DNA from: Bispira polyomma
Taxonomy: Eukaryota
Length of the DNA stretch: 64,000 nt
Direction of reading: 5' to 3'
Assembly (NCBI GenBank): GCA_965649765.1
Contig: OZ287752.1
Coordinates: forward strand, 26,102,001 to 26,166,000
A program made the position numbers and the translations under genes. The notes beneath the pieces are model-generated. The model had not been told where the DNA came from, did no database searches, and saw only the letters and a list, made by a program, of their open reading frames with translations. This document shows positions 12,663-40,400 of the stretch, piece by piece; the first letter of the stretch is position 1; the number at the start of each line of letters is the position of its first letter.

Positions 12663-13003
12663 ATAATGGATGTATACAGGATACAATTTAAACATCTTGT
12701 GATATATACTAGTACAGGGAGTGTTTTTCTTAACATCAAATTAGCAGTTGATTAACCTTTAATTACCCCAAGGATTCACCATGGCAAAGTTTCCTATATT
12801 CAGTAAGCTGCACAGTCTATAATGGACGTATACAGGATATAATTTAAACATTGTGATATATACTAGTACAGGTATTGTTTTTGTTATTATCTACTAAGCA
12901 GTGAATTAAGGGTACGGATTAAGCTTTTATTACATATTTAAAACATCCCAAGGATTCATCATGGCAGAGTTGGCTGTATTCAGTAGGAAGCTGTCCAGTC
13001 TAT
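12663..13003 (+). repeat. Diverged tandem duplication of the start region, creating uORF 12781-12822
   Basis: ATAATGGA.GTATACAGGATA...CCCAAGGATTCA.CATGGCA.AGTT occurs twice; the upstream copy reads MAKFPIFSKLHSL*. Confidence 0.85.
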
Positions 13004-13496: not shown

Positions 13497-16400
13497 GTAG
13501 GTATACACACAGTAAGGGGGGTCACCCTAAATGAAGAAAACAGTCCAATTTTGATGAAAACAGGTCAAATTTGAGACACTTTAATGAAAAATGGGCTGTT
13601 TTCTTCACTTAGGGACACAGCACATTGAAGATGTATTATGATAATATACAAAATGAGAAGATGAATATCTATCTTGCACAATACAAATGTATCAATAATA
13701 ATTTATTTAAAAAAAGTTGAACCCCAATAGTCAGAATTTGTACTATCTGAATATTCAGTTTTATGAACTCTATTTCATTTCTGGTAAGATTATAGGTTCC
13801 GCTCTGTTTTATCCTTAGTTTGTACCTCTTCTATATTAATAACAACTTTAATTACTGGCATAGATTGTCACTCTCCAAGTGAGTGTGGATAACGGGGGCT
13901 ATGAAGAAAGACCCTGTTGCTTTGTAAACCTCTTAAGTTCGATCAGTCATGTATTTTGTTACACAATGAATGTATCCTAAAGGTAAGTTTTCTGCATATC
14001 TGGTTAAGGGCATTATAACATGTGTACACTATAAATTAAGGGCATAGAGTCTAAAGGTTATTTGAGAACATAACCTAGATACTGTGTACATACTTTCTGT
14101 CAGCTTTTAAACCATTCCTCTATATTTTCTACTTTCTATGCTTCCGCAAACATAGTGTGACCAACAGAGGTGGCACAATTAGAAAATGCATGTATGTGTG
14201 ATCAAAATCCTTTAAGTAAAACTCTGATAAGTGGACTTACCTGTTAAGTAAAAGTTATTATAAGGCCCCCTTGCTGCATTTCTAATTGCAATTGACCCTG
14301 TAGTTAAATTTCTGTCAAGTAGAACACTTTTTTCTGGTGCCTTAAGATTTGACCTAATTGACTTATAACGGTTCCACTATATATATGTCGTGACAGAAAA
14401 ACTCCAATCTGACAAGATTTGAAATTCTGTCCATAGAAACTCCAATCCTAGTTTATTCATTACTATGTGCATGATTAATGAGGATTGAAAAATCTTGCTC
14501 TTCTAACGTGTTTGTATAATAAAGGTTCTAATGTATAGCCTATTTTGACTTCTCTCCATTACAGGACTATGACTGAGATTGCCAGTACTGAAAATGTGCT
14601 GCTATTGAAAGTATTCAGATAACAGAGGTCCTACTGTTTAACATACATGACTTCTTTATTCCTATTAATGTACAGGACTGTGGCTGAGATTACCAGTGCT
14701 GAAGATGCTGTGGTATTGAAAGTGTTCCTCCGTGGACATCAGCTCATGTTGATGTCTGGCAGTGATTTAGTCAAAGAACCAGCCTGGATTGTTCCTAGGC
14801 AACAGTGGAACCATGTGACATTACAGGTAAGATCATGTGACATACCAGGATTTGAAGTTATTTAGGTGTGTTTTTAACACACTCCCCTACATATCCCACT
14901 CTGCTACTCTAATATCAGTATATGTGGGCTTTGATAATGAAAGGAGACGCTAAGAACCACTGGGCCATCACGGTCTTGTTTTGATATCATTCAGGCTTGT
15001 TGAAAGTGACCTTGAACCCAACTTAAAGTACAAATGTACATAAAATAATCAATAATGTTTAATGTATATTTTTTAGTACATTTCTACATTTATAAAGTGA
15101 AACTTGTATATAAAACCATCCAAGGGAACCCTCAAAGGTAGCCTTTTTTGATAGGTGGTCTTTTTATATAGAAGTTGAACAGGTAGTCCTTATACATAGG
15201 TGGTCTATGTATAGAGGTGGTCACTTGAGCAGGTTTATGCACTGTACATCTATTTCTTGCAGATCTACGAAGGTACCACATCGTTATTCCTGAATGGCTC
15301 CCTGGTGACTCCCTCCCAGTACGGTGCTACAAGATCAGTCCCTGGATTGACTAATTCTTTTGTCATAGGAGACAGTCACTCAGGTAAAACACAGCAAAAC
15401 TTTTTCTTTCTAAAAGTTCTGGTGTTAAACTCCATACTTTAATTGGACACGGCATAGACAGCCATATCGAAAAGAGTTTATACTACTATCACAGCCTTTT
15501 ACAGTTCAGTGACATCCTTAAGATTCAGCGTTTTGTGTTCATATGCCAAAATCCAACATGGCCGCACTCTGTCCACTAAATTCTAGAATCATTCCAGGGC
15601 ACTTTCAAACCAATAACTAGAAGGGTATTGGTGTGTATACATGCACTAAAATGGCACAGTGCCAAAAAGTAAATTTGTTAATCCACAAATTGTATTGGAT
15701 TCTGGTCTTGGTCCTTACCCGGTCGGCCATCCCTCTACTGGATTTCATGTCAAACTCCTGGTTACTTTTAAACTGACAGGACCAACCAACGGACACGGGT
15801 GAAAACATAACCTCCTTCGAACTCTATTCTTTTTGATATAATCTAATCAAACTTTTATAGCGCTTATTATCTCTTCATCATGGTTAATGCTAAGGCACAT
15901 ATATATCATGTGTATTCTCTGTTTTATCTTGAAATCATTATAATGTGTTTTATTGGGGTATGTTCTTCCAAAGTGAATTGCTAAAAGCCAGGGTAGGGGC
16001 TATTCAAAGGTCTGTAGCTGAGAGGAGTTTCTGACAAAATTCACCAGAATTTATACAATTTACAATTGGCAATCTTATACTGAGACAATATTTATGAACA
16101 GTGGACCTTAAAATTTTTACCAAAACATTGGACATATTAGATTTTACATGACAGAGTAAATATTGTTCTGTACATGGAACACTTCTTACAGTAACAAATT
16201 CACAATGTGTTGTGTATGCTCTCTGTGTGCGCTCTCTACCCAGGTATATAAATGGGTACCTGGCTGCTAGTGTGTGTGTTAGTCTGTGTGTGCCGTATGT
16301 GGCAGCACAGCTTTTATGTTTTCTGAGGGAGCTGAAACTGAACAATTGTTTTGACAAGTAGAAGAACCCAGCTAGCCTGGGGGTGTAAACTGTGTACAGT

Positions 16401-19400
16401 GCTTTGGAAAAAAACTAATTAACCCATATAAAAGCAAATTTACACTTAAATTTATGTCAACCTGTTTAATGTTGTTCACTTGTCTTACACACACAGGAGG
16501 AGAAAGGTTTGTGGGATTTCTAGATAGTATGGACCTTTACTACACGAGTGTCTCAAACAGGTGAGCTTCATCACGGACAATAATGATCAGACAAAGAATA
16601 TTTAGTAAATTTAAATTAGTGTTTAGTAAATTAAACTTAATGTTTAGTAAATTTATATTTAGTAAATTAAAATAATGTTTAGTAAATGTTAAACAGCTAA
16701 AGAAATTATTAGTTTGGCTACATTGATTAACAATTAAATACCTAGTACATGTGTATCATTCTCCTGTTTAACCCCTTTTTGTATCACTACATCTAATACA
16801 TAATTGTTAGCCTTCCCCTTTCTAGGATAAATTGACAACCCCCCCCCCCCCCCACTTTCCCTTTTTGGTAGGTTTACATGTCATAAATAATTTGTTTGTT
16901 TTTTTGTTTTTTTTTTCTCAGGGAAGTGATTGAAATCTTCACGGGTACCTTGCCCGAGACGAGAGTACTTTCCAATTGTCGCTGTAAGTCGGAGTACCCT
17001 GCCTTAAAAGACTCTGATATGTCATTCTGTGTACAAAATGAAGGGGAAGGACAGTCCACCTTGGAAACCTACAGGATAACTAGGTAAGTGTCTGGGACTT
17101 AAGGACTATACCATGACAAACAAGGGGTTTACAGGGGGGAATGTTATGTAGGACCACAAAGGTGAAGTCCAAGAGTGCTAAAATACCCTGTGTATAGCCC
17201 TGGCTTGAAATGGGGAAGTGTCTGTGAATTAAGGACTATACCATGACCAACACAGGGATGCTCGGGGAGGAATGTTACCATGATTGGAGGTGTAGGATCA
17301 CAAAGGTGAGGTTCAAGAGTGGTCAAATTACCTTAATAGCCATGGTTTGGAATAGGTGTCTGTGAATTAAGGACGACTATACCATGATAAACACAGGGAT
17401 GTTCGGGGGAGGAATGTTACCACGATCGAAGGTGTAGGATCACACAGCTGACTTACCTGTATGCCCCTGGTTTTAGAATGGGTTACTCTGATATATTTAA
17501 CATCTCCTTCTTTACTGGGAGAAAACAACTGAAGGAAATCTTTTGGCATGAGGTTACAGATAGCTGAAGTCACTAAAACACACACCACAAACTACTACCA
17601 GCATTCAATAACAACCTCACATACAATTTTTTTGAATGGGGAAGTGTGCTGTACTAACAATTTCCTACTGCAAGGAACTAAAGAAAAATAAAATAATATT
17701 ATGGTGTGTTGACTGCTTCCCGTTAGACATAGGTCCTGGGTGTAACAATTAATTGCCATGCAGTGACTGCTTGTCGACACACATGGGGGGTTGAAAGGCT
17801 TTATATATTACCTAAAAATGTTGCTGCATTTGAAAGTTATTGTATTGTATTATACATGTTTCTGACCAAACTATGTTAAAGAATAACTCTTTGTAAACTC
17901 GTATATTTCAAAACTTGTGGTAGAAAAGGTCCTAGTATTACTGCACAACATTAATTGCTTGTAAAGTTTGTTGTATTCTTTATATATCACCAGGAACTCC
18001 TACCCTATTGAATATGTCAATGATGGTAAACTGGACACACAGTGGATCTCTCAGCCTCCTACAGCCAGTAACAATGCACCCATACAGGAAACCCAGATTG
18101 TCATAGATCTAGAGCAGGAATATGAGGTAAGTACATACTATAGAAGGCCATTCAGTGGAGTGCATATCTCCACTAAGGTGACACAACAGTGTCAAATATT
18201 GTTTTTTTTTGTTTGAAAATCCTGGATCTGCCATTCCAAGCATATCTTCTCCCAAAGTTATAAGGCATTGTCTTCCTAATTAGCCCATGCCCCAGGGTCA
18301 ATTTTCATGTGAAATTTTGGTTCAGTTGTTTTTTGTGTAATCCTGGTGACAAAACAAACAAATTCATTTCACTTTTAACACTATCTTCAAATATGAAGTC
18401 AGATTTTACAAATATGTACTAATTTATCCAGAGGTATTAAAGAATTCAGATTTCAGCTGAGTATATGTTCGATAATATCAGCCTAAAAGTTTAGATAACA
18501 AAGGTAGTACTGTTCTTTGTTCTCCTGTAGGTCAGACATGTCGAGATCAAGTTCTACAGTCCCTACCCTAGTGTGATTACCATAGAGCGGCAGATGTCAG
18601 ACGGCGACAACTTTGAATATTGGCAGTTTTATTCCTCTGATTGTGAATCTTACACTAGTATCCCACCTAATGAAGTCCTCTCATCATCGGACGATGTGAC
18701 GTGCAGGCTCTTAGTAGAGTGAGTATTGTAGTAAGCAGTGTGAATTGTTAGCTTCTGGTGGAGTGAGTATGGCAGTAAACAATGTGAATTGTTAGCTTGT
18801 AGTAGAATGAGAATGGGAGTAATCAATGTGAATTGTTAGCTTCTAGTAGAGTGAGTATGGCAGTAATCAATGTGAAATGTTAGCTTTTATTAGAGTTAGT
18901 ATGGCAGTAATCAATGTGAATTGTTAGCTTCTATTAGAGTTAGTATGGCAGTAATCAATGTGAATTGTTAGCTTCTAGTAGAGTGGGTATGGTTGATATA
19001 AATGAATTTTTGAGCTTCTAACAAAGTGAATATGGTAGACATGAATGTAAATCTTGAGCTTCTAGTAGGGTGGGTATGGTAGTCATAAATATAAATATTG
19101 GCTTCTAGTAGAGTGAGTATGGTAGTTATAAATGTAAATATTGGCTTCTATTAGAGTGAGTATGGTGGGCATAAATGTAAATATTAAGGTTCTAGTAAAG
19201 TGAGTATGGTAAACATAAATGTAAATATTGAGTTTCTAGTAGAGTGAGTATGTTAGCCATAAATGCAATGTTGGGTTCTAGTAGAGTGAGTATGGTAGTC
19301 ATAAATAGAAATGTTGTCTTCTGGTATAGTAAGTATTGTACACATAAATATAGGCTTCAAATAGAGTCAGTACAGTAGACATAAACCCTGGCTTCTAAAA

Positions 19401-22400
19401 TAAAGCCAGTACAGTAAACATAAATGTAAATGCTGGCTTTTAGTAAAGAGAGTACAGTAGATATAAATGTAAATGTATGTGTTTTCAGTTGAACCTGTTA
19501 AGGTAGAACTCTGTTAAGACAATTTAGCCTTTATGTAGATAAACAATTACAGTCGTACAATTGAAAGGCATTTTCTTTAAAATCTGCCCTGTGGTGAAGG
19601 GGAAGTCTTCCTTAAGTAGAGGTATTTCTTGTGGTCCTTGAAGTTCTGCTTAAAGGGGTTTAACTGTATGTGTTACAGTGTTACCCATTTAAATCAGCTC
19701 TAGACAAACCATTTCTCTAAATTTTTACTTTGCTGCTCTAAATCCTGCTTAAACAGAGATATATTTGTCAGTTAAAATCATAGTGCCTTGTTTTAGATAA
19801 TTTTATGATAATTTAGCACAGCTGAAGATGTAAATATTATTGCTATGATTTATTTTAATGTTAAGACACCCCCCACCCCCCCCACCCCCCACCCCCCTAT
19901 CTCCTTGGAAAATGCAACCCCTGGGGCATTTATAACATAACATACAGTATATTTATTCCATTCTAGAGCCAATGAGGTGACCCCTTACACAGATGGGGAG
20001 AAAAAATTTGACCTTCTAAAAGGTCGGCCTGGACAGTCTGTTAGCGGAATGTTCACTCCTCTACTCAGGGACTTCATGAAGGCCAGACGTGTGAGGGTGA
20101 CCTTAAAAGGTCATGAATACGTCTCATTTGCAGAGCATAAATATCACAGTGTGTACGAAATCAAAATAAATGGAACGTAAGTAAATTGTATGGATTTCAT
20201 ATGATGGAAATGAATTAATAAATAACAACTGTTGACAAACCAGACTTATTATTCCTTTGAATACACACTTCAGTTCTTCTTTTAAATATACAGTGGAAAT
20301 TCTATCGTCCAAATTTCTTTTATTCGAATATTTGATTTTATGGCACCAGAGGGATTATTCTGAAGGGATGCTCCAGTTTAACACTCAACTATGACTCACA
20401 TAACTATTATTTAAAATACTAAAGTTATATATTGTGGTCCTTTTTGTTTGATGTACTCAATAAATATCTTTGAGATAAAATCACGACACTTGTATCATCC
20501 GTTTTCTCTTTCTCTAGGTGTGACTGTTCAGGACACGGTGTAGCCTGTGACACTTCTCTGAACCCCTATCAGTGTACCTGTGCTAACGACTCCTACACAC
20601 AGGGACGTCAGTGTGACCAATGCGTGGACAACTCCTACAGATTGCCAGACAAGGACCTCTATGATCCGGATTACTGCCAGCCATGTAACTGTCACTTGGA
20701 CGGAACTGATGGAGCTGATCCGGACTGTAATATTGTAAGTGATGTTACAGTAGTTTTATGTCCTCCAGAAAGTTAGTTATGTTGGTTTATTCATTAGCAG
20801 GATTATGCAAAAAAAATAAGAACTACTTGACTGATTTTAATAGATTAAACTAGGATCATTCGAGCCACTATGTATCTGCTTGTACCTGAGAGCCAAGACT
20901 TAGATCAAACTCAAGTCTTCTGTGTTCTTATGTCAGTGTGTTAGCCACTAGGAAGAGGACTAATCTATATGACCAAATGTAACATAGGGACCAGCCAATA
21001 TCAAATTTAAAGGTCATCAAGATTTTAGGTGATTTAGCCGCATCTTCTTCTCTGTTAGAGGAGTAAACGCAAGTTGTCTTGATAGATTGCTAGGGTTGTA
21101 TTCACAAACATCCTTAGAATGCAATTCGTAGAATTTTCTTAGGCTCGACCAATCAGATTGTTCCAAAATACGCTTTCAGCTCATCAAATTGGTTAAAATA
21201 AAAGACTAAGAATAAGAATCTTTGTGAATACCAGCCCTGGGCATCATTTCTGAGTGTGTTTCTTGTTTATATTAGGGAGAATTAAATCTGCCAAATCACA
21301 TATAAATCCCAATTGAAATACAGTAGAACCTCTATTGTCCGAACTTCTGTTATCAAATATTTAATTTTATTAACACATTTTGACTTTCCCACATTCATGT
21401 TTTCCTATTTCGTTACAATAAAATACCTCTTCTATTTAATGAACCTTCTATTATCCCATTTACTCTCACAACATGTTCTAATAATAGTGGTTCTACTGTA
21501 CTAATGACCAGCCCCAATGCAAGGTGTTCCTTACATTTCAGACTACTGGCCAGTGTAACTGTAAGATGAATGTAGCCGGGCTGATGTGTGACATCTGTTC
21601 ACCTGGACATTTTAACTTATCCAGCTCAAATCCAGAAGGTTGTCAGGCCTGTGACTGTGATATTGAAGGTAAATTATTTCTTTACCGTTTTACCTTTCTT
21701 TACATGTTTGAAACATACTTGTAAAAAAAAGACAATTACTCCACTGAACAACATTTCCAAGAGCAATTCTAACGAAATTTTAACAAGATTTTGCTTACAG
21801 CCAATAAGTGATCCCCCCAAAAAAACAAACAAACAAACACCCTAATGAATTGTTTGAAATTAAGTTTGTAATGAATCATTGACATTTTAATTATGTCCAC
21901 CCCAGTGGGGGTGGACATATTATTTTTGCTTTTTCCGGCGTCCGCCGTCCGTCACGCTTGGTTTCCGGTCATTTTAAGGAAAAGTATTTATTCTATGTTT
22001 ACCAAATTTGGTATGGGTGGTTATTGGGTTAATAGCTTGCATGGGATTGCTTTTGGTGAAGATAGCTCCATAGCTAACTGAGTAATAGCTACTTACTTAC
22101 TTTTATGTACTTCTTTTGTTTTCGGGCATTTTAAGGAAGCATATTTGACATATCTTTACCAAATTTGGTATGAGCAATAGCTAGGTCAATAGCTTGCTTG
22201 GGATTGCTTTTAGTGATAATAGCTATAGAACTGACTGAGTAATAGCTACTTAGCTACTTTGAGTAGCTTTTTTATTTTAAGCATTTCAAAGGAAAACAAT
22301 GTTTTCTAGCTTCACAAAAATTTATATGAAAGAAAATTGTGTCAATAGTTTGGCCAGGATAGCTTTTGGTTGGTGATAGCTTTGTAACTATAGCTAAGTG

Positions 22401-25400
22401 AGTAATAGCTACTTACCTACTTTTGTGTACTCCTTTCGTTTCCGGGCATTTCAAGGAAAAATATTTGACATATCTATACTTTGAGCCTACTCTGAATTGC
22501 ATTTCTGTTTTCACTCTTTTGAAGGAAACATATTTAACTCGTCTTTTTAAATTTGGTATGAAGGTTTATAGCGTCAATTGCTTGCTTGGTATTGTTGTTG
22601 GTGGTAATAGCTTTAACCTCCTGAGTAATAGCTACATAGCAAAAAACATTAATATGTCTATCTCCTAAACCGTGCGAGATAGAGCGATTTCGTCGAAATT
22701 TTCGACCCTGAGGGTATTTAAGCAATGTACTCTTGGCAATTTTGAAAAAAAATTTACTCTCCCCAAAAATGGCGACCATTTTTAATTTTTACCAAAAATG
22801 GAAAAACCTAAATTTGCTTCTATCTTCTTAATCGTGCGAGATAGAGCGATTTTGTCAAAATTTTTGACGCACAGGGTATCTAAGAAATGTACTATAGGCA
22901 ATTTTCAAAAAAAATTCCTCTCCCCAAAAATGGCGGCCATTTTAAATTTTCAAATTTTTGCCAAAACTGGAAAAACACAAATTTATTTCTATTTCCTTAA
23001 CCGTGCGAGAAAGAGCGATTTCGTTGAAATTTTAGACCCACAGGGTATCTAATCAATGTACTCTTGGCAATTTTTAAAAAGTTTTCCTCTCCCCAAAAAT
23101 GGCGGCCATTTTGATTTTTCGAATTTTTGCCAAAAAAAACAAAACAGTCCTGTAAGACTACTGTGCAATTGTTCGAAAAGGTTCATGGGGTGGACATTAC
23201 ACATACTCTTAACAGGGCGTCCTATTTCTAGTTGTCATTTAATTTTATTTTACCACAAAATATCCCGGAAACCAAAATTTATACCCATAATCAAAAGAAG
23301 AAACTATCCCATTCCCAATGGTACATTTTATACTCTTATATAATGTGTACAATAGGAGTGTAACAACCCAGTCTGTTATTGATGCATTTCCATTTATATA
23401 TTATAAGTGCAACCCTGTGTGCATTTATAATTGATAATTTTTGTAACAACCCAGTAAATGTTATTTAGTTTATTCCATTGGTCTATACATTATAAGTGCA
23501 ACATTTTGCTCATTTATTGATTTTTTTACCGCACAGTTGTTTATGGTTGTCAGTGTATTAATGTGCTTGCTCTTTTCTTGTAAAATCCACCCTGTTGTGT
23601 GGAAATTTCTCATTAAGTGGAGGTATTTATTCTGGTTCCTTGAGGTTTTAATTAAAGGGGTTCAACTGTATAAATAATTGAAATGAATTTTAGTGCAAAT
23701 GTAAACTTAGCCTACGCTTCCTTTCAGCCGACCACGACATAGGCCGATTTATTAACATTTAAGCTGTTTCCATGTCTGCCAATGTAGTGCTTTCTTTCAT
23801 CCAATATGTGATGAATATTCATTGGATGTTGATGGTCAAACAGTGTGAGAAAGCAATTTTTTTCGCTCCCAGACCGATAACATCTAAAGTTAGAAGAAGC
23901 ATCTGCCGACATGAGATCGGATATGACAAAAATCAGATGAAAGGAAGCACTTTATCATAACATCAAATAGTGACGGATAAATTTGGCCGACATCGGCCAG
24001 CAAAAATCGGCTAAAACGAAGCGTAAGCTGAGAGCTGTTTTTAATTTTTTATACTGTTTTTTTAAACTTTAGGTGTGTACAATATGAGTGCAATGTGCCA
24101 TGAATTAACTGGACAATGTCAGTGCAAGGACAACGTGGAGGGAGATCGTTGTGAGAGGTACAATAGTAGTTTCTATATCTGAGAAATAATATTTTTATCA
24201 GGCACAGCCTGGTGCCATTAAAAAAGGCGCTGCCATCTTAGAAGTAATATGTAAGGCCTTCATGGATTGGTTGGAAGCAATCCACCTGTCCAAACTGAGA
24301 GGTGTCAGATTTATAGTATCAGACACAGCCACCATGTTGGAAAATATATTTAAGGCCACAATGGATTTGTTGGACTGAGGGGTGTCAGTCACAATGTACA
24401 CCAATGTGTTTTTGAAAAGACAACTACTTAACACAATCCCATGGATATGCTTTTAAAAATGTATATAAAAGTAAGATTAATAATTCCAGTGGTGAGAGGA
24501 TGCAAACATAGAGTGTTTTGCATCCTATTTATTGAAACGCAAGAACTAATTCATTAAGATGGTATTGTGACCTGGTTTCTGAGATGACATTATAATAAAC
24601 ACTGCATCTCATTAGGGTGTTTTTGACCAAGTCCCTTTTTGTGGTAGTTTGTAACACTACAAGGGCGGTCGTAATAGTGTCTGGGTCATAATATTGGCCG
24701 ACGCACGTTTTAATGTATGAAACGTAGATTTCTCAAAAATTAAATATATTATTCTGTAATTTAATTCACAGGTATAAAGTAGCATGTGTTTTCAATATTG
24801 ATTTCCGTCAGTAAGGGTGAAAGAGAGTTGCGCCCCTTGCCGCCGGACGCTACAGGTTGGGTTAACACCCCCGTCTGGTTGCTTTTTCATTAACCAGCTG
24901 TTAACGCCACTACCCTTACGACCTTGCTATGCCCATGGACTTTATGATTGGATCACTGATTCTGCTGTTGCGCTTTAGAAGATGCTTTAGAAGATGCCAT
25001 TATTATGACCTGGACATTATTCTGACCACCCGTGTAATAGCTGTAAAGTTGACCACTGTGTTTTATCATTTATATATAGCTGTAAAGTTAATCACCATAT
25101 GGTTTGTGTTTCATACATACAGCTGTAAAGTTGAGCATTGTATTTTGTATTTCTTATATAGCTGTAAGGTTGAGCACTACAGTCTATCAGAAGATAACCC
25201 CCTGGGCTGTACACCATGTGATTGTCATCCCTCGGGGGTCAAGGACAGTCGCACCGATTGTGATCTCAATACAGGACAGTGTCTCTGTAAAACTTTAGCT
25301 ACAGGTATGATATGATAAATTTGAACTTGTACCTGCTTTGTGACTGTATACATGGCGTACAGTTACGTTAATTGATTCAACACTTTAAAAAAGACTACAT

Positions 25401-28400
25401 ATATGTAGTTTATGGAAATAACCCACAATTGTGATGCAACATTGAGCACCAAATATGCAGGCAGATAATCTTTACCCGAATTCCTTCTTGTGAGAGATAT
25501 ACTGAAACTTGGAGTTGAGTTTGAGTTATTTTGATACTGTTTTGATACTATGGCCAGTTTTGATCAGTGTGTCTTCTGACATTTAACATTAAGAATATAC
25601 CAACCTACAAAAATCTAATAAAAAAATTATTTTTTTTATTCCCATACTAGATTTACAGTGCGATAAATGTGAACCAGGTTACTATGACCTAGATTCCACC
25701 AATGAGGTTGGTTGCTCTCCCTGTAACTGTAACCTTGATGGCTCCCACAATTCCTCATGTGACCTTGAAACCGGTCAGTGCTTCTGTAAGCCAAACATCA
25801 TCGGCCTCTTGTGCGACCGATGTGACAGTAGCTTTTTCGCCCTGAATAATGAGGACTTTATCGAATATGGCTGCAGCCACGCCTGCAATTGTGATGGCAA
25901 CGGAACAATAGGTGGTAGTACAGAATGCGCGGAAATTGGCGGAAACTGCCAATGTCGTCCAAACACCAAGGGCCGGCAATGTGACCAATGCAAGGCGCTG
26001 ACCTATGGTTTCGGCTCGTCAGAAAATAACGGTTGCCGAGCCTGCGACTGCGACACTCGTGGGACGGAGAATGGCGACATCGGCTGTGACTCTACAACGG
26101 GCCAGTGCGAGTGTAAGCTGTACACTACAGAGAGGAGATGTGACACATGTCTGACTGGCTATTATAACGAGACTAAGGAGAATGCCCAGGGTTGTACTTA
26201 CTGTGACTGCTACCCTATAGGGTCAACACAAGATGGGGACTGTGACGAGGTGACTGGGCAGTGTGTGTGTAAAGACAATGAAGGAGACTCGACACTAGGG
26301 GGAAGACAGTGTGTATGTATATAGTTATTATCCACTATGGTATGTACATATATAAGCAAGGAAAATCATAGACCAGGGAACAGTTTTTCTTCATATCCTC
26401 TGCCACCAGTAAAAAATGTATTTGAAAAGTGTAGTATTTCACTGATATTTACAAGGATGTAGTCAGGGTTTTTTGGTGGTTTTTTTTTGGTCGCTATAAT
26501 ATTCAACAGAGAAATCTAACAAAATTCTTTGAAATATATAATACAATAAAACTTTCATTTAATGCCTTCGAATAGTAAACATTTCTCTCTTATGTAATAC
26601 TCAGTACTTTAGTCCATTGAAATTTTACATTATACAGTCCAACCACTTAAGTGGAACTCTGATAAGTCGATTTTCCTGTTATGTTGAAGTAAACCTCTGG
26701 TCCCAGTATGGCATTTTCTTTTAAAATCTACCCTGTTAAGTGGAAGTCCTGCTTAAGTAGAGGTAATTCTTCTGGTCTATTGAGGTTCTACTTAAAGGAG
26801 TTTAACTGCATATGAGCTGAAGGGGACCATGCCTCAAAGTATTTGTTTTGGCTCACTGATCTTACAATGCACACGTGTAGGGTATTCAATTTACATCTAC
26901 AATGCACACATATTCCATGTACAGTACAATGATGAACAATTTTTCCCAGTCCTTTTTTTGCCACCATTAAATTGTACAGTACCTGTGAATAGTAAACATC
27001 TCTTTGTAGCTTTTAAATACACATAACAATTAAAAACTTTTACAGTAACTGTATATACTACCTTTTTACTTATGATCAGTCATATATATAAATATATGTT
27101 ACAGTGAAGCTGTGTAATCACTGATTATGTGTAATTTTTATCAAATACACATAATCTCTGAACTTTAAGTGCCCAAATTTAACAACTTTGCTTAAAGTAG
27201 ATTCAGTAAATAATTTTTTTGTGAAAGAGAAAAATAACTGTTAAATATTTTTCTATTTCTGTTTTTACCAACTTTCTACTATCTCAACAACATCTTACCT
27301 CTTCAAACATGTTTTGGATGTTACAGTTTCCACTGTACGTGTTATATCCTATTTCATATTTTATTTCATTATTCTTTTTAATTTCAGAATGCTTACATCA
27401 CTTCCATTATCCCTAACCGGGGGCCCGAGTCAGGTGGTACAGAGATCACAGTGAGGGGAGGGTACATGGGGAACTCCACTGCTACCATGGTAACCATAGG
27501 AGACATGGACTGTCCTATAGTGGAGGAGAAAAGGTGATATATTTTTTTCAGCAAAAGTGGAGCCAATATTAAAGAAACCAATGTTAATACATTGTGATGT
27601 AACATATATTGTCAAAAAAAATATAATAGTAATATATTAAAAAGTTGAACGATCTACAAAATAATCTGTGCCAGTATTCACAAAAGGGCTGAGTCTAGAA
27701 ATTGTCCTAAATCTAGCACCAAAGTGTACTAGATCTAAGACAATGCCACCACTTAGCCCTGTATTCTTAACTATGGGTCAATGCATTTACATGCAGAGCT
27801 ACTTTATCATACATTACTATCTAATACATGTCACAATTTTAACATTTTTAAAACTGCCTAAAGAAGAGATGTAAAAATTTCCCATCATATTTTTGTGTAA
27901 TACCTGCTAAAATATTGGCATTTAGTGGTCTGAGAATCTCTTTTCAAAAAGGTGACTATAATTAGAGAGGGAGCCTTTATTATGGAAAATACTGTAATAA
28001 AAAAACTATAAAAACGCAGTCACATGATAATGGTTCAGAAATCTGTCATGAGCTTTTTACAACTAATGAAAAAGACCAAAAGTGTGCAGTGAACAGTGCA
28101 CCAGTTGTACGCATACATTATCTTGAGAGTCTATAATCTAATCTAATCAATTCTGTGATGGCGCTTATTCTTCATACTACATGTAGTGGATTCTAAGGCG
28201 TAATAATCAAAATCATCGTTCAGTAGTCTTGTTGTGATGGGCAGAGAGTCATTACCAGAAGCTAATCTCATGCCAGTAAAGTATAATTGATCCGACAGTT
28301 TTGTGTATTTTGCATTTGTTGTGTAGGTCAGCCACCTCAGTGACTTGTATCAGTAGCAGACTAAATGGTACGGACACAGAGTTCCTAGATATACCACAGC

Positions 28401-31400
28401 CAGTGCTGGTCACACTGCCAGATGGACGGGTTATAGACTACAGCTTTGAGTTCACATTTAAACATGACCCAGTCATTCAGACAGTTAAGCCATTGTCTAG
28501 TATACTGAGGTAAGTACATAGGTAATCCATAGTACAGTAGAACCTTTATTATACGATCTTCTATATATTAAACACGACCCAGTCAGTCAGACAGTGAAGC
28601 CACTGTCTATTTTACTGAGGTAAGTTTATGTCATGTAAAGATATCATCTTTGGATACACATTAATATAGACAGCCATTATGAACCTTGTCAGCTAATGGA
28701 TAAATTTTTTGTTGAGCAATTAATTACAATGAAAATTTAAGGGTCTTTATTAGGAGCAAAGGACTGTTTCTAAAGTGGGGGGTAGGGGAGATCTTTTTGA
28801 AAAGAAGTGGAGAGTCTGGAAACAAGTATTCCAGTTTATGTAATCCATAATAATGTAGGACCAAGCCTCCTCTGTCCAGTATACTGAGGTAAGTTAATAT
28901 ACATACAGTAGAACCTCTACTATTCAAACTTCTATTGTCAGAACTTTTGGTTTTAACTACTTTCCAGTCTCCTAAATTTTCGTTTTCCTGTCATTTTATT
29001 CTAAAATACCGGGGCATCTCTTCTTTTTTATGTACCTTCTATTATCCAAACAAAATCTTGGTTTCCAAAGATGTTTGTATAATAGAGGTTCTACTGTACT
29101 TCATACATTTCTCACTCTCAAGTTATACTTACAATGACCTGTATATTTTGTTGTTTGTTTTACAGTGGTGGGATTCCCTTGACAGTAACTGGCATCTTTT
29201 TAGATTCTGTGGCATTTCCTTATTTGGAAATTACCATGGTCTACACCCCAGAGACTGGGCCCATAGAAGAGGCCATGTTTGACACAGTAAGTTTGGTTTA
29301 ATTACATAAAAGACACACACATGGCTATAATAGGACAAAGGGGCATGTACATTGCAATTTTTTGGTTAAGTATTATTTGTAAACAGAGTTTGGAATTGTG
29401 ACTAGTATATTTTAAATGTATCTTCCTTAATTGCAAGCTTTGAAAATAGGAGTTGCTCTTCATAATATGTGGTTTTAATTATTTTCTGTAATGCTAGTAT
29501 ATTTAATTGAGTGGAGTTACGAGAACTTGTGAAATATATATAATTTACTCACTGTCTTAAACTTTTGTCTCAACCAATTTGGTTAGCTGAAAATATTGTT
29601 TTAATAAATTTGATTGGCTGAGACTAAGCAAATTATAAGAATTGTATTCTAAGAATGTTTGTGAACATGGCCCCCTGGTTTTATCACTAGGCAGGTGTTT
29701 GTTTGCTTTTTATGGTCACTATTTGGCAAAAATGCCATCTATTTACTGTAGTGTAAAGGAGCTTTATTGGTGCAGTACTACAACACTCACCTCCCACCTC
29801 TAATGTCCTGGTTCAAAACTCGGCCAGGCTTTAAGTGGGAAAGTTGGCACTTTTACCGATGGTCGCTGGTTTATAGTGTAGAATGTTGACGACCTAGTAT
29901 ACTCTGGTTTTCTCCAGCACTCCAACTGCCCATCGTAATGTGACCTATACAATGTGTTAAAAGCGATGTTAAATCTAAAATTAAAAAACAATACACAATG
30001 TAAACTGACATGGTGTTAGACACAGTTTAATAATTTGGGTAAAAAATTTATAGTCGATTTAGACACGTACAAATATAATTATTATTGCCTTGTAAATATT
30101 AATATAATGAAAATTAAAGTTGTATTTTAATCAACATGTGTTAAAATAGGATTTTGAATTACAGGAGACATTTGATTGATTAAATCAGATGGCCAATATC
30201 GAATTTAAAAGGTTATTGAATCAACAAGAACCAACTGCAGGCTTTGTGCAATTATTAGTATAAGTGTAATACATTATTTTATAACATTGCAGACTAGGTG
30301 TGGCTTTTATCTCAATTCTAACTTAACTTCACAATTAATACTTATGCCTAAAATTCATAATGCAGAACATTTACAAAATATCATAGAGGGTTGTATGCAT
30401 ATGATATATAGGCAGCCAGTGTGCATTATCGTTTCAGATGAATGTGTGCGTATAGACCAGAAAAGCGGCATTTCTACGCAACTCATTATGTTAGAATGTA
30501 AAACATAAGAACATTTTATCAAATAAATACCTATTTATTTTCCAGCTCTGTGCTGTGCAGTCAAACTTCGAAATGATCTGTCCCACCCCAAACATCACCT
30601 TACCTGAGAATTATAGAGCACCTGCAAGGAGGAAGCGTCAGACTGATACAACAGCCAATGAGTTTAAACTTAACAGTGACAGTTTGGAGTTTCTGATAGG
30701 CTTTCGACTGGATGGTGTAACAGACTATTTAGACTTAACCAGTCTCAGACCGGAATACAGTATTTTAACTGTGTATATCAATCCAGAATTTGAATCCTTT
30801 GAAGGAGATGGAATCAAAGTCTACAGACCGTACTGGCCATTTAATGATGACCATATTGCAATCAAGGTGGATTGAGATTTACATATTTTTGTCTGGGTAG
30901 CATGCTAACATTAATACACAATAGACCTTGGTTCGATCCCAGCCTGGCGCAACCCGGTTACAGGCAGAGGCATAGTGACTTGAATGACCACTAATAATTG
31001 CTAGTCCCCTGTCATTGGGTTATACCCCCAATCGCAGATGGTCATAAATGGTCATCCTAAAGCCTCTTTTTGCAATTAAAAGAATGACTGTTGTTTCTGG
31101 TTGACTGTACTTGGGCATTTTAAAAAAGGTGAATTAGTGCTTTAAATACCAGAGAAAGGTAGACGAATGCACTGAATATAAAATGGAATACAATACAATA
31201 CCAAATTATTGTGGGAGTTTAACTTTTAATAAATTTGTATTGTAATGTCATGATAGACATTATATTGGTGGAGAAAAGCGAAACAAAAAGTAGATTTTTT
31301 AAAACACCAGCCTTCACTAATTCTACAGGAACCTTCCCACATACATACTGTGGGTGAGATTAGAACCCACAACTGCAGAGGCTTCACTTCATCATTAATT

Positions 31401-34400
31401 GAAGCTTGCTATTATTTATCCTGTCACAAAATACAATATGTTTCTGTTGTCTAAACCTTTGTTATCTAAATATTTATTTTTAAGAAGATCCACAGATCCA
31501 CAACTTTATAATGGCGTTGTTTTATAAGTACATTAGTGATAATTAAAACACATAAATGTACACATTGTTAAATAGCTAAATCTTGTCCTTTTTAATACAG
31601 GGAGAAAGGCTTAACTACGGGGCTACAATGAGTGACTATAAAGTGACTATTGGAGATGCTGAGTGTACAGGTTTAGAGCTCACAGAGAACAGGATCTACT
31701 GCATCCCTCCAGACTCACAGCCAGGCATGTCAGAGTACGGAGACAAGGACGGGGCACCTGCATTTCTGGTAAATACATTGTACACTAAAGTTGATATATT
31801 GATTTAAACTTGTACTCGCAATGATTGACCCTTGTCTGGTACTTCAATTCTCACATGACACTGCTAGTGCTATATTACATGTAATTTATAAAAGAAGGTT
31901 CCAATATTTAGCTTCATATATGAGAAGGATGTCTTTAAATATTTCCCTATTTAGACCCTTATTCTCAAATTCATACTTGGCTTAAGTACATCCGGAGCTG
32001 TCTTCTCAAATCCAGACAATACTCAATTAGGGCAATGTATAAATTCCTCTATTTGGACAGAACTGATCACTCATTTTAATAATAGTGCTTTCATTGCTAA
32101 ATTCAAATACAGTCAAACCTCTTTAAGTGGAAATCTGATAAGTGGAATTACCTATTAAGTAGAAGTTATTGCAAGGTCCCAGTGCTATATTTCTAATTAA
32201 AATTTACCCTATTGAGTAGACTTTCTGTTAAGTAGAACAAAATGTTTATGGTCCCTTCAGATATAACAGGGTTTCACTGTGTGTAGTTAGATTTCACTTT
32301 ACATCCCTCTAGCCAGAGATAAGGACACCTTATATATAGAGTTCAATCTCAGTATAAGTTTGACTGGAAATTTTTTAGAGAAAATGGCCACTGTTTTTAC
32401 GGAAAGGCAAGCTACCACTCAGTGAACCATAGACTAAACCCCCCAAATGTTTTTTGGGTATTTTTATATTACAGATCAAAGTAGGCAACATCAAACACTT
32501 GGCCGGCTATTTAAAGTACGAGACGTCTTTCTGGGAGAATACAGTATTTCGTTGGAGTGTCGTGGGAGGCCTTATCTTGGTTGTCTTGATCATTGTCATC
32601 ATCATTATTGCCTGCTGTGTGTCCAAACACAGAAAGAATAAGGACAAAAGTACCAAGGAGAAAGAGCACCCCAAAATACTGGATCAGTTTGACCATTTCG
32701 ATCACTTTGACAACCACATTGGTAATGGACTGAACAACGGAAATGTCAACATCGCCATGCAGGAGAACCAGTACGTCACTGACCACTCAACGACGCTTCC
32801 AATGCCACCGAAAGCTGCCAGCAACGCATACACGGCTCCACCTCCATCCAGTTTCCAGCCGACCACTTTACCGATGCCACCTCGTAAGCACGAGTTCACT
32901 GCACCACCACCAGTAGCAGCTAAAAAGCCTCACAGGAGGGAGCAAGGTAAAGCCGGAGTTTTAACAGCTGAAGTTGTGATTTGTCTCCTAGCTTGTTTGT
33001 TAGCAGGTTTACGCAAAAACTTTATTGCGAATATTGAAGTTAAACTATTGTGATTATGTTTATACCATGTTTTCATCAGCTAATCTAAATATAACATGAA
33101 CATGTATTGTATTCTTCTCTAATTTACTAGTTTTAGAGAAATTCAGTGGAATTAATTTCACTATTGGTCATTTTTTGTGTTAAAATATTACTACAAATTA
33201 GAATTTTCACTGAGAATTAATTTTCACTATCTAAGGCCATTAGGCTAAAAATAGCTAAAACTAATTCCTCCTAGTAAACCTTGGGGGTCGCGATGGCCTA
33301 GTGGTTAGCAAATATTGCATTTCACAATTACTGGTCTCTCACCTCTGGGATCGGCTGGCATGGGTTCGACTCCCGACGATACCTATGTGGGAAAGGTGGT
33401 AGTTCCTTACTGTTGACTGCTGGTTTCAGTGCAGAATCTTGATCAACTGTATGCAATGTTTCCTCCAGCATTTCCAACTACCCGTCCCAATATAACCTAA
33501 ACAGGTACTAGAGTGGACGTTAAATATCCCAATTCAAAAAATAATTCCTGGTGAACCTTATACCACTTTAATAGAGCTGTTTCTCCCTTGTACGGTCTTT
33601 ACGCTTTCTGCGTTTAGACATATGTTTTGCACATGTATTACGGGATCAACATTTTTGTAATTAATTTTGAAAATTACTACTTAAACAGAGCTGTTTATCC
33701 TTAGTACTGTCTTCGCTGTTTCTATGTTTAGACATAGTGGACGTTAAATATCCCAATTCAAAAAATAATTCCTGGTGAACCTTATACCACTTTAATAGAG
33801 CTGTTTCTCCCTTGTACGGTCTTTACGCTTTCTGCGTTTAGACATATGTTTTGCACATGTATTACGGGATCAACATTTTTGTAATTAATTTTGAAAATTA
33901 CTACTTAAACAGAGCTGTTTATCCTTAGTACTGTCTTCGCTGTTTCTATGTTTAGACATATGTTTTTCATATTGTATTATAGGGTCAACTTCTTCCTACT
34001 TAAACCCCATGATGACACCGCAGATATTTGAAGTTATTACAGCAGAACTCAAGTACAAAGTAGATCAGGTTTCTGTGGAAGCCAACCGGTTGCAACTGGG
34101 CAAGGTAGTTCAACAAGGTAATGCATATACTGTGTAACCATCAAACTTTGCCACTGTATCTGAAATTTGCCACCTAGATATTGTGTTTTGTTTGGTAGAA
34201 TTGTAGATAACATTTGCTAAAACTGGAATTTTTGTGACTATTTTTGCCTTACTTACCTAAATCCCAGTTCTTTTTCGCCAGTTTTTTTTTTTATTGATTT
34301 TGGCTTAAATGTTAGATGTGGCGTATTTTAGATACAGTGGCAAATTTTAGATTCCTTACTCTATCACATAAAATGTTGTTGGTTCTTTTGCCTACACCTC

Positions 34401-37400
34401 ATATCTTGAATGGCATATAATAAAGAATATCTAGAAAACAAAATTTCAAACTTTGTTAAGTTTGATTCAGTGGATGCATATATAATTTCTGAATACTTGG
34501 CACAGACTCATATTCCCTACCCAAGGCCATGTTAAGGTTATTGTACAATTTGTTATTTCAATAACCAAAGTCATCGCCTTAAATATTTTATAATGTTTGG
34601 CGCATAATATTATTGAATAATATCATATTAGTGGTTGTGTAAAATAGGTGATATGTTAGCAACAGTTGAATTTAAATTTCATTATTGATCACTAAATGAA
34701 TATAAACATAACTATTTATTTTAAATCAATCTATATTTGTTTGTTTATTTCAGGCAAAGTTGGTCAGATCTGCACATGCATGTTTCTGGATAAATACCGT
34801 TCCCAATCCAAGCCTGTGTTAGTGAAAACATTGTCGGGTAAGAATATTATATTGGAGAGAGTAGATTAAAGATCACTAAAATACAGTTCAAACCTATAGT
34901 TAAAACCCAAACTTAACCCTTTGACCCCAAGAGAAATCTATCACCAAGAACTGAAGGATATTTTGGAGGGTAGTTGCTACAGATAGCTGGAGTTACTAAA
35001 ACATACACCACAGACTACTTCCGGCATTCAATAATTGTTTTTTTAACCGAGAAGTCTGCTGTAATATCAATTTCCTATTGCCAGGAACTGAAGGAAAATA
35101 AAACCTGTCGGCAAACAGGTTCTGGGAGTAGGAACTTGCTGACAATCTAGGGATCAAAAGGGCCAACCTCTGTAATATTGCAAATTCTAAGGCACGTTGT
35201 AGTAGATTTAATATAACGGTGCAGCTTTTTTTGTCGTTGTATAAAAAGTAGAACTATTTTTGAGGTTATAAATATAATGTACTACATGCTTCCATAGTAT
35301 TTTAAATAAATAATCGTTACATTTCTAAAGCTTAAAAATATGAATTTTTGCATAGAAACCCAACCCCCCAGTTTTTCTAGGTGGATAACACAACAGACGT
35401 CAGAAATTATCATGGAAATTTTATTGTAATTAGATTCTTTTTCTCAAATTTTTGTGTCTTGATCATTTCAATTAGTTGAAAATTATTATTGTTTCAAAGA
35501 ATCTGATACAATCGAAGTCTTCTTTTTTTTTACAGAAAGTGGAATGGTGCCTCGAGAAATCCAGCACTTTCTAGAAGATTCCATCATGCTGAGAGCACTG
35601 CACCATCGTAATGTGGTGGGATTACTAGGTATTATAGTGGAGAACAACCAAGTCTACTCAATATCACCTAGTATGGAGAATGGGAACCTGAAGACTATGA
35701 TTACTAATGAAGAAAATGTAAGTACACTTTAGTAACCTTAAGAGAGGCAATAGACTCTCTGTTTCTTTTGTTAAACCCTCCAGGAAGGCTGGATCCAAAG
35801 ATTTCTCCATTGCAGCTCCCTTCTGATAGAACAGTCTTCCAGTCAATGATCAGATCATCAGACACACTTATCGGTTTTAGGAAAAAGCTTAAAACCTATC
35901 TTTTTAACCTGGCATTTCCACCGTAGTTTTCCCCCTATACAACCCCTGCATCCTTCTTGTGACCTTGCCATGTCCATGGTTCACACGATTGGATCAGTGA
36001 TTCTGCTATTGTTTTTAAGGAGACGCCTAGCATCAATAAAGACATGTTAAAAATGCATAATAATAATAATAATATGTGCATATTGTTACATTAATTTTAT
36101 GTGAAAATGACTTTTATTCCTTCTACATATTCGCTGAATTTGTTTCAGTGAATAAATGTAACAACTATCTAATAATATGAGGGAATGTATGTATTCCCTG
36201 ATTACACATACTCACTGTAACATATATATAGGATGATTGGATGTGTTAACATAGATAATTACAAAAATTACAGTAGTGAAACCTCTACTTTTTGAATATG
36301 CTTGGTGAGAAAGAGCTTGTTTAGTCCTAAGATAGGACCTTATGTCTTTTCCAGCGGTTAACCGTTGACATGACGTTAGTGTGCAGATACGCAATTTTTC
36401 ACTGAGGTCCCTATTTTAGGGCTAGAGCTTGTTTGGATAATAGATGGTTCATAAAATATAGAAGATGTATTCCTGAATAGAACAATAGCAAAACAAAACA
36501 TTTGGGAGACCGAAAATGGGTTGATAAAATTGAATATTAAGACAATAAAATTTCAGATAATAGAGGTTCTGCTGCCTTGCACTAGTTGATACATGTACAG
36601 TAGAACCTCTATTGTCTGAAGTTCTACCATCTATATCTATATGTATTTGATTTTCCGAATTACCCTATTGATCCCTAGGGGCCGCGGTGGCCTAGTGGCT
36701 AGCAAGCATTGCGCTTCACAATCACTGGTCTCTCACTTCTGGGATCGGCTGGCGTGAGTTTGACTCTCATCGATGCCTATGTGGGAAAGGTGGTAGTTCC
36801 CTACTGTCGGCCGCTGGTTTCAGTGCAAAACCTTGATCAATTGTACGAAAATGCTTTCTCCAGTGTTTCCAACTACCCATCCCGATATAACCTAAACAGG
36901 TGCTAGAGTGGATGTTAAATATCCCAATTCAAAAACATTCAATTCCTATTGATCCCTAGGTTGTTGGCAATCAATCAAAAGCATTGAATTATTTGTTACT
37001 CTCACAACCTATGTCTGTTGGCAAACAGTCCACACCCCAAAAATATTACATTTTTCTTAAGCTCCTCACAATTAGAAAATTGTTAGTACAACAGACACAT
37101 TTGTTCAAAAAAATTGTATGTGATCCTGTTATTGAATGCTGAAAGTATATCTGAAACCTATTCCTGAAAACATTTCCTTCAATTCCTGGCAATAGTTTTC
37201 TCTTGGGGTCAAAAGGGTTAATATAGGCATACAATATGATCTACACCCTCCCCCCCCCCCTCCTCCCTGTGAACTTCTTCTCTGTTTCTTTGTGCTTTAG
37301 AAGATGCCTCGCATCAATAAGGCACATCAAATTGTTGTATAAAATGCATGTACATAATGTACTCATAGAAATGCCCACAATATATTTTTAGTCTGAAATC

Positions 37401-40400
37401 TTGTTTTATTTAACTCGTGTCTACTATGCACTCACTAAATTATTGTCTAAATTTGTTGCCAATGTATAATGTACTCCTACAGATGCTGACTGTTGGCGAA
37501 CTAATACAGATGGCTCTACACATATCTACCGGTATGGCCTTCCTCTCAGACTCCAAGGTTGTACACAAAGACTTGGCAGCCAGAAATTGTGTGTAAGTAA
37601 AGTGGTTTACTGGGATCATGAATTATCAAGTTGGTAATGTTTGTTTTTGGATTTTTGTGGGATCGTCATATTGGCTCAAATTACCACTTAAGATGGATGT
37701 CCTCTGTCATTGCAACCTATCACCAGAGGCAAGCCAAAGAACATTGGAGACATTTATATTTATACATGGTGTCATCATCAAGCCTCTTTCTCTTCAGTTA
37801 GAGGAATGACAGTTACTAGTGCTGCTTCACTGCTTAATTTAGCAGTCAAGAAAAGATTAATCTCTAACATAAATACCCAATAAAGGTAGACAAATATGTT
37901 GAGTATACATTTGAATACAATACAAGATGTAACATTTACAGGGTTGATAAAGACTTAGTGGTCAAAATCAGTGACAGGGCCCTGTCACGTGACCTCTACC
38001 CACAAGCTTACTGGAAAGGTGCAGATATGAAGCGACCAATGCCAATACGGTGGATGTCACTGGAAAACCTAGAAATAGATGTGTTTACCAGTAAGAGTGA
38101 TGTGGTAAGTGGCTGCCATTTTATCGTAGATTCAGATTTGTACCTACTTTTATCTTTAATTTCTAAAGTTAAAGTTTTAATTTATATTCTGCCCCTATGT
38201 TATGGAATAGTCTCCCAGTTGAGATAAGATCCCTAGAAACACATTCTGGGTTTACAAGAAAAGCTAAAAACCCATCTCTTTAATCTCGCCTATTCCCTTT
38301 CATTTCCACATCCTTCCTTATGACATTAGCTGTGTTTTTGGACTTGTCTATTGGCTCACTGATTCTGTTGTTGTGCTTTAGGAAATGCCTTGCATTAATA
38401 AGGCAAGTTAAAATTGCGGATTACAATACAATATTGTGAACCATTTATGTAGCAGTAACTTTGTTCAAATAGATCCTTTATGGTGCTTGTTCTCTGAAAG
38501 ACAGTATAGTATCGCATGAACAAAGCATGGGTTGTCAGTGCAAGAAAATCGTCAAAAAGATCGTGGAAAAGATTGTGGCCTCTGTGGCCTAGCGGTTAGA
38601 TTGTCAGACTTGAGGGATCTGAGGGTCCCAGGTCGATCCTCACCGCAGGCCTGGAAATTGTACCCTCGGACAAAGTGCTTTACACAAAGTTGTCCCTCTC
38701 TGCCCGGGTGTTTAAATGGCTAACTTGCCTCTAATGGGTGTTAGTATTTATGCAGCGTATGTAGCAGCACAGCTAAGTATGCTTCCTGAGGGAGCTGCGA
38801 CTGAAAAATTTGTTAACAAGTGGAAAAACCCAGGCTGGGGGTGTAAATTGTCAAGTCGGATGGGACCTCAATAAAGCTGATATCAGACTATAAAACTAGA
38901 CACATTTACACATTCACAATTGAATTGTGTGGTTGACAGTTAGTCTTCTATCTAGTGTAGTTGAATATTGACTATATTTCAGTGGGCATTTGGAGTGACT
39001 CTGTGGGAGTTACTAACCAGAGGTTGCACACCTTACCCTGACATCAACACTAATGGGGTCAAGAACTTCCTCCTCTGTGGAAACAGAATGGACCGGCCTG
39101 ACTTCTGCCCAGAAGACTTGTAAGTACAGCTGTACTTTAGTTACACAAAGCTTAGGTACATAAATAGTAAATGCCAGTTTTAACAAGAAAAATGTAAATT
39201 AATCTATCCACTTTTATTTGCACAGGTTTTACTCGATATTAAAAGCAAAGATTGTTGATATGTTCATACCTGAAAAAAATGACATTGCTACCCATTCATT
39301 ATCAAATTCTGTTTGAAATCTGTGTCATAACTTTCACAGCTGTTGCCTATTACTAGCTCACCTACCCTTGCTACAAGCTTGTCTTTCTCTCAGTAATCTC
39401 AATATGTTTGATACAATAGGGATTATACTGTATTTTATTTACATGAATTCTAGCATTAGTTCATCAGTATTAACTGTAAATTTAAAATGAGAAATGTAGA
39501 AAACAGTCTGTTTACTTAAAGTGGTTCGTAAAAGGATTTATGAATCATCATAGATCCACATGTAGGGGAATCCTGCAGTTGCTTAGTTGTTAGCAGTTAG
39601 CGTTCCTCTACAAACATTTGCCCTCTCACCCATGTAGATTTGAATCCCATTAGTTCCTTCATGTGGGACAGTTTGTCAGGTACTTTTACCGGTGGTTTTA
39701 CATTGTTTTAGTACTGGTTTTGTCCACCGTTAAATGACATAGGGATGTGTTGAAAGTGACGTAAAACTCATTAGATTCAAAATTATTAAAGAAAACAAAT
39801 GTTGATATGTGGATGAGTAACATTTTTAATAGGTGAGGCTAGCAAGGCTAGTCTAAGGCTAGTCTCACTTATTGATGGGGTGGTGCGGATTTCGTGTTGC
39901 GACAGCATTTACGTGAAATTGGCCCGAAAATTTCACTTTATGCTTACAATGTATTCTTTTATAATTCTAGGGATAATGCAGTCGATTTGTTTTCTTAATA
40001 AAAAATTATAATAATCGTCTAAAAATACTGACCTAGGTTGACATGGGTTTGACCTATATAGTCACAAAGCTCATTTCCTAGGCTTGCTAAAGGCCCATCA
40101 TTTTTCCGTGTTATAAAGGGCCGCATATTGGCGAATAATCAATGTCGATATGTGGATGAGTAACATAATTTTTTTAAATTAAGTGTAATAAGTGTGTAAA
40201 TTTATGAACTATCCAAAGATATATCTGGGAACTTAACCATATGTGGAAGCAATTTACAGGCTGATCTAAAAATTATCACAATTATTCAATATAAGTCACT
40301 ATTTTAACATTGCCACCACATTGCTTAGTGCAGGGGAGATTTACGTATTAGTTTCCATTATATTTATCATGTAGTATAACCAACCTGGCCTCTAATGGGC

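Follow-up and report, generated by a model that had tools for sequence, protein, structure and literature searches.

A single gene predicted in a 64,000-nucleotide stretch of the Bispira polyomma genome (GCA_965649765.1, contig OZ287752.1, positions 26,102,001 to 26,166,000; hereafter the window) begins like usherin, the deaf-blindness protein, and ends like Met, a growth-factor receptor kinase. The locus raises the question of how two such genes came to share one reading frame, and where exactly they meet. The gene model, which like its splicing is read from the DNA alone, comprises 26 exons encoding 1,736 amino acids in one open frame; its introns are GT-AG and the only stop is terminal. Exon-by-exon Pfam searches returned, from the N-terminus on, Laminin_N, EGF_laminin, TIG and tyrosine-kinase domains (Table 1). 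A putative signal peptide is probably present at the N-terminus, within exons 1-8. We conclude that the gene is a real Met-family receptor variant and probably an undescribed one.

Table 1. Features of the predicted receptor gene, in window coordinates
Feature	Position	Strand	Basis
Whole gene: usherin-like LamG/LamNT head, seven LE, six-Cys LE, three IPT, TM, tyrosine-kinase-like domain	12961..40886	+	
Exons 1-8: LamG-like insert and usherin-type Laminin_N	12961..20176	+	Pfam Laminin_N on exons 1, 7 and 8; tblastn to the C2 usherin of the same genome (G000)
LE1-LE7 (exons 9-13), eight Cys apiece	20518..26201	+	Usherins are the top protein matches; exon 13 model folds LE-like
Six-Cys terminal LE, aa 897-933, with 13-residue Cys5-Cys6 loop	26202..26312	+	Ungapped alignment with three homologues
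Seam intron, 1,075 nt, phase 0	26313..27387	+	Donor 3.0 bits, acceptor 10.3 bits
In-frame TAG (26322-26324), then stronger cryptic donor after 26339	26322..26339	+	Splice-site scan
MITE-like high-copy repeat within the seam intron	~26630..26815		Contig depth, blastn copies
First IPT (exons 14-15), Met/plexin IPT2 equivalent, and start of the next IPT	27388..28509	+	Pfam, intron position, human MET match
IPT3- and IPT4-equivalent domains	29166..32552	+	Gene model, Pfam
RRKR furin-type site	30627-30638	+	Sequence motif
Transmembrane helix, aa 1273-1295	32553..32621	+	Sole strongly hydrophobic segment
Tyrosine-kinase-like domain, degenerate motifs	33983..40886	+	Pfam PK_Tyr_Ser-Thr; alignment

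Several exon ends are duplicated nearby and are possible decoy splice sites: part of the start of exon 2 recurs at 14566-14620, the end of exon 15 with its donor recurs twice (28575-28621 and 28870-28890), and tandem copies of the exon 12 acceptor lie at 25040-25161. Elsewhere in the window, all on the minus strand, are RING/B-box (TRIM-like) protein frames recognised by eye (528-1977), broken fragments of LINE-type reverse transcriptase (8128-10062 and 51212-52132) and, downstream of the receptor gene, a 345-aa open frame of unassigned kind (47223-48257).

The seam and its six-cysteine module

A preliminary description of this DNA had placed a fusion seam at a phase-0 intron of about 1.07 kb following an eighth LE (laminin-EGF) repeat with only six of its eight cysteines, and this holds. 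The terminal LE carries Cys1 to Cys6 at LE spacing and lacks Cys7 and Cys8, LE1-LE7 have eight cysteines each, and the intron that follows is in phase 0 and leads into an exon matching Pfam TIG (exon 14, 27388-27533, E 3e-10). The description had also seen no Sema or PSI exon within the intron. Our scan, whose splice matrices were trained on the 24 remaining introns of the model, gave 4 acceptor-like and 8 donor-like sites of at least 3 bits, which combine into three open candidate exons with phase-0 entry; all three had negative coding scores, and none held a Cys7/Cys8 pair, PSI or Sema. An Rfam search returned no match at E 0.1 or better. The repeat within the intron reaches a summed contig depth of about 58,000 as against about 15 in run X1, and blastn finds copies in many of the loci examined; the three DNA-like sequencing runs used for contig depth may be the source sample and are silent on expression.

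The same seam is conserved in all four genes in which it was found, from three genomes: the window gene, a paralog on the minus strand of C4 in the same genome (G000:C4:68510000-68570000, L015-L020), and contigs from two other animals (L200 and L202), which come from a metagenome scan that gave three loci, two of them reaching the seam. In all four the module has the spacing C-x-C-x10-C-x6-C-x-C-x13-C and aligns without gaps, the donor lies directly after Cys6, and the acceptor lies 24 nt before the IPT motif proline; intron length ranges from 1,886 nt in the C4 paralog and 1,075 nt in the window to 315 nt in L200 and 132 nt in L202, with position and phase identical. L200 and L202 encode LamNT, seven full LE and the six-Cys module followed by a canonical donor, and both contigs stop before any kinase; their identity is about 40% to the window gene and 58% between the two. 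The C4 paralog combines a usherin-like head with three IPT domains, a TM segment and a kinase, and the six-Cys module is its only LE, scoring 97 against window LE8 where the best other LE tested scored 80. The acceptor before this LE exon has been amplified as a ~31-bp tandem repeat across ~1.3 kb, and one intron of the paralog contains a 1,048-aa LINE-type reverse-transcriptase frame (L018).

Because a paralog and two other animals have this seam too, its cysteine spacing and intron phase unchanged, it is likely to be old and conserved rather than a one-off accident, and the intron does lie at the border between usherin-derived and Met-derived parts. In a tree of the IPT region, the four seam genes fall in one starred clade (95/94) that also takes in P0073 and a C1 gene bearing EGF. 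A clade of the four seam genes and P0073 that excludes the C1 gene was rejected (p-AU 0.03), which requires a later, secondary swap of the N-terminus in the C1 gene. For exon 17, at least 17 further homologues were found, all single-exon; the representative search gave 89 matches, mostly single-exon frames without context.

Cysteines of LE modules pair 1-3, 2-4, 5-6 and 7-8 as described in PMC5338690, and the same source describes laminin beta2 LE5 as a solved LE that lacks the 7-8 disulfide and packs on a beta-sandwich (PDB 5LF2). This pairing and this precedent agree with the earlier proposal that six cysteines leave three complete disulfides, which in the window module would be 1-3, 2-4 and 5-6. 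PDB 5LF2 is also the best PDB sequence match of a profile built from the four modules (E 5e-4). The likeness to laminin beta LE5 includes a natural truncation and would extend to the packing on a following beta-sandwich, but laminin beta LE5 precedes an LF insert and more LE (PMC5338690), whereas the window module precedes an IPT domain, and the Cys5-Cys6 loop of LE5 is shorter than the 13 residues of the window module. At a laminin-beta-like locus of this genome with a natural six-Cys LE (L194, G000:C4:90.55M), the exon runs on past Cys6, unlike at the seam. An AlphaFold model of exon 13 alone forms an LE array with a mean pLDDT of 78.6, in which the long Cys5-Cys6 loop falls below 50, as expected if it needs the IPT domain. 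The last cysteine of the module stands 9 residues before the IPT motif proline, the spot held by the last PSI cysteine in this genome's Met; this register, and the retention of the module as the sole LE of the C4 paralog, suggest that it is a cap in the place of PSI.

Parentage of the two sides

On the acceptor side, we compared the window gene with three genes of the same genome, for which the class names Met and Met-LP follow PMC6374515: a Met gene (C4:43.36-43.43M, one PSI seen), a Met-LP-like gene (C4:43.16-43.22M, two PSI) and a plexin (C4:44.71-44.75M). Sema was confirmed for these genes. The Met-LP-like and Met genes, separated by about 130 kb, are arranged tail to tail, and the plexin is 1.3 Mb away. 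In all three, as in the window gene and the C4 paralog, the motif proline of IPT2 follows a phase-0 acceptor at a distance of 24 nt; at IPT1 the distance from intron to motif proline is 6 nt in Met and Met-LP, and plexin has no intron there. The best stretch for exon 14 in full-length human MET is 658-699, which we take to be the second IPT-like stretch of that protein, and in each of 9 full-domain comparisons (P0091, whose motif was unmatched, left out) the IPT2-type plexin domain outscored the IPT1-type one. Scores from the first exon alone, in roughly cut slices, were mixed against this genome's Met and plexin, the window gene preferring IPT1 in two of three. The label IPT1 that the preliminary description gave to the domain after the seam is therefore wrong: the human MET match, the presence of only three IPT domains and the IPT1|IPT2 acceptor identify an IPT2-type domain. 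Reading exon 14 as IPT1, because the cysteine upstream of it is in PSI register, was ruled out by intron position and domain count. By its position, the seam acceptor is the ancestral phase-0 site between IPT1 and IPT2, and since the domain after it is of IPT2 type, the fusion removed Sema, PSI and IPT1.

Other ectodomains stand before Met-type IPT domains. In a receptor kinase gene on the minus strand of C6 (G000:C6:64780000-64801000, L088-L090), an ephrin-receptor-like (GCC) exon is followed in phase 0 by this IPT2 acceptor, and no N-terminal part before that exon was found. On C1 and C7 there are EGF-bearing genes whose acceptor is in phase 1 and lies 11 nt upstream of the phase-0 site. As read, the C1 gene and the C7 gene at 2.76M are EGF-IPT-TM genes with this phase-1 acceptor and no kinase within the stretches examined. 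About eight near-identical IPT3 matches lie on C7 at 2.42-3.34M, many of them ~72 kb apart, with copies at C8:38.18M and C1:13.96M (L157, L159, L161-L169). By eye, the Met-type IPT stalks of P0081, P0071 and P0054 follow N-termini that are cadherin-like, CUB-like or Thr-rich; P0081, from Ptychodera flava, has a kinase.

On the donor side, the N-terminal half of the window gene matches the usherin gene on C2 of this genome (tblastn). Introns 1, 4 and 6 lie, by eye, at usherin positions, and two of the seven introns in the LE region of usherin are common to the window gene, the phase-0 intron in window LE2 corresponding to that of usherin LE3 and the phase-1 intron in window LE4 to that of usherin LE4. 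These shared introns indicate that the 5' half of the window gene is a usherin duplicate. None of the seven usherin introns mapped, from the end of LamNT to LE10, follows an LE Cys6 in phase 0; the map covers one usherin gene, and its LE9 intron is in phase 2, just before Cys8. In a partial survey of 22 other LE-bearing loci, 0 of 27 LE cores had a GT after Cys6. Skipping of exon 13 in human USH2A joins Cys5 of LE4 to Cys8 of LE8 as described in PMC8353187, so the exon borders of human usherin are not at Cys6 either.

Because the resident usherin lacks a phase-0 intron after any LE Cys6, the seam donor probably arose after the fusion, although with a single usherin gene mapped, an ancestral usherin intron may have been lost. 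The comparison of introns that the preliminary description proposed therefore separates the two sides: Met and plexin genes share the phase-0 site (3/3), usherin does not (0/7). Its view of the intron as the ancestral recombination point stands in so far as the usherin/Met border is concerned, and is not borne out as regards recombination at the intron on both sides.

The six-Cys module itself plausibly derives from usherin LE9, which is favoured by its 54% identity and by its long Cys5-Cys6 loop, a longer loop being confined to LE9 in 15 of 15 usherins (15 of 24 used). Scores do not single LE9 out, with 102 for LE3, 100 for LE5 and 100 for LE9, and profile scores tie LE6, LE9 and LE10; profiles from the same 15 of 24 usherins gave no assignment of each window LE to one usherin LE.

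How the fusion arose

The shared acceptor, the usherin introns in the 5' half and the one seam in four genes lead us to think it fairly probable that this is an old chimeric gene, in which the 5' half of usherin was set on the phase-0 IPT1|IPT2 acceptor of Met with a newly recruited donor. After duplication, this usherin half would have been joined once to a Met-type half carrying IPT2-IPT4, TM and kinase; the junction would have used the acceptor already present in Met, and usherin would have been broken within a late LE exon or immediately behind it, LE9 being a plausible candidate. As the next intron of usherin is in phase 2, frame and Cys7 would have been left unmatched, and a new donor recruited directly after Cys6 would have restored the frame and left three complete disulfides, the module being retained as a compact cap where the LE rod meets the IPT stalk. 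The product would be a single-pass receptor whose LamNT/LE head binds matrix or surface partners and which would be cleaved at RRKR; the basic insert holding this site is also present in this genome's plexin and in the exon-17 homologues. The window copy would signal as a pseudokinase, and the C4 paralog keeps HRD and DFG.

This recruited donor on the Met acceptor fits the data better than classical exon shuffling, an unlikely course in which a usherin-like donor gene with a phase-0 intron after Cys6 would have recombined within two phase-0 introns, the usherin intron being lost later. Shuffling would explain why phase already matches on both sides and why the module is a separate phase 1-0 exon in L200 and L202; the C6 gene shows the same acceptor taking a GCC exon in phase 0, and intron sets vary among family members, so intron loss does happen. 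Against this weigh the absence of the Cys6 site from usherin and from the other LE cores surveyed, and the retention in the window gene of the other usherin LE introns, those of LE3 and LE4.

The preliminary description, although its observation of the seam is borne out, overlooked the weakness of the donor (3.0 bits, in a range of 2.6-11.5 over the model's 25 donors), which faces a strong acceptor. A better in-frame donor (7.2 bits) follows 26339, but downstream of the in-frame TAG, so that read-through to the TAG or use of this donor could possibly yield a truncated, secreted or NMD-targeted form. Further, the intron contains nine ATG-started frames of at least 15 aa, two of them with an in-frame donor downstream, and starts from these two are possible. 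All this would suit a gene whose two halves are, in this species, expressed mainly apart: the first as a secreted LamNT-LE protein that stops at the TAG, the second as an IPT-kinase transcript initiated internally. We hold this to be very unlikely as the main mode of expression, with a minor secreted isoform possible: the seam is kept in four genes, the donors of L200 and L202 are canonical, the L202 intron measures just 132 nt, and the read-through form would gain an unpaired seventh cysteine.

About equally unlikely is a three-part chimera of usherin head, Met/plexin IPT stalk and RYK-derived kinase. The window kinase has Asp for the alphaC Glu (35577-35579), HKD for HRD and DRA for DFG (37973-37981), motifs that are all intact in the C4 paralog, and from these changes the window copy is likely a pseudokinase. 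RYK has likewise lost DFG and other catalytic motifs, this genome's RYK having DRG where the window has DRA, and the best PDB match of exon 24 is RYK (36.7 bits, vs 33.8 for MET). The AU test does not reject a clade of the window gene and RYK (p-AU 0.54), in a tree where both are long branches, and the kinase intron positions are common to RYK, Met and the window gene. Identity, by contrast, is 38-44% to Met-group kinases vs 32% to RYK, and the best tree places the window gene with the C4 paralog and the C6 GCC gene (78/81, unstarred). RYK also has a WIF ectodomain, of which we found none in the window gene, the only genome matches being on C10, where a separate WIF-bearing RYK resides, and at C4 96.6M. 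The likeness to RYK is probably convergent. Finally, an assembly artefact fusing two genes has a negligible chance of being right: no single contig crosses the whole stretch and contigs break at the intronic repeat, but the identical seam is present on another chromosome and on two independent contigs (L200 and L202), and contigs reach into the intron from both flanking exons, overlapping in run X3, which may be the source sample.

Relation to known receptors and meaning

Compared with Met/RON and Met-LP as described in PMC6374515, the window gene has a like IPT2-4 stalk and TM, a kinase that may be of the Met group, and the phase-0 intron before IPT2, but its exons and seam intron hold no Sema, PSI or IPT1, and a usherin-type head stands in their place. 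Met/RON has four IPT domains where the window gene has three, equivalent to IPT2-4, and its catalytic motifs are intact, as are those of the C4 paralog, whereas those of the window copy are degenerate; the Sema platform for HGF/MSP-type ligands is absent from the window gene. Plexin combines a Sema ectodomain with a cytoplasmic RasGAP, present in this genome's plexin at C4 44.7M, whereas the window gene has a cytoplasmic kinase. With usherin (USH2A) the window gene shares the LamG-like/LamNT head, the LE array, several introns and the top protein matches. Usherin has ten complete LE followed by FN3, and the window gene seven complete and one truncated LE followed by IPT; the FN3/LamG body of usherin is missing, IPT, TM and kinase are present instead, and the C4 paralog retains one LE module. 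A separate usherin gene lies on C2.

We found no description of this architecture in the literature searched, and no receptor kinase with a LamNT head in the literature or annotated proteins searched; the supplement of PMC6374515 may list further Met-like proteins. Protein searches, a weak method for long proteins, gave no full-length relative for exon 17 and four plexins for the IPT exon of the C4 paralog; among the 109 proteins found with exon 13, none had LE together with TIG or kinase in its listed Pfam domains, a result that is likewise weak for long proteins.

The gene extends the Met-type architectures, Met and Met-LP, by a third, in which a laminin/usherin-type head takes the place of Sema. 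Its seam is one of the rare cases that allow the two parent genes to be compared directly with several of their descendants, and it points to a new receptor made not by a symmetrical exon swap but by reuse of an old acceptor and by trimming of a cysteine module to leave complete disulfides. More tentatively, these genes may belong to an ancient and undescribed family of basement-membrane-sensing receptor kinases, with a usherin/netrin-type LamNT-LE head on a Met stalk and an active and a pseudokinase member working as a pair, in which the Met IPT1|IPT2 intron would have served invertebrates as a reusable socket for ectodomains such as those of usherin and GCC type. Should laminin or netrin partners bind to the LamNT head, such receptors would link the sensing of matrix polymers directly to kinase signalling.
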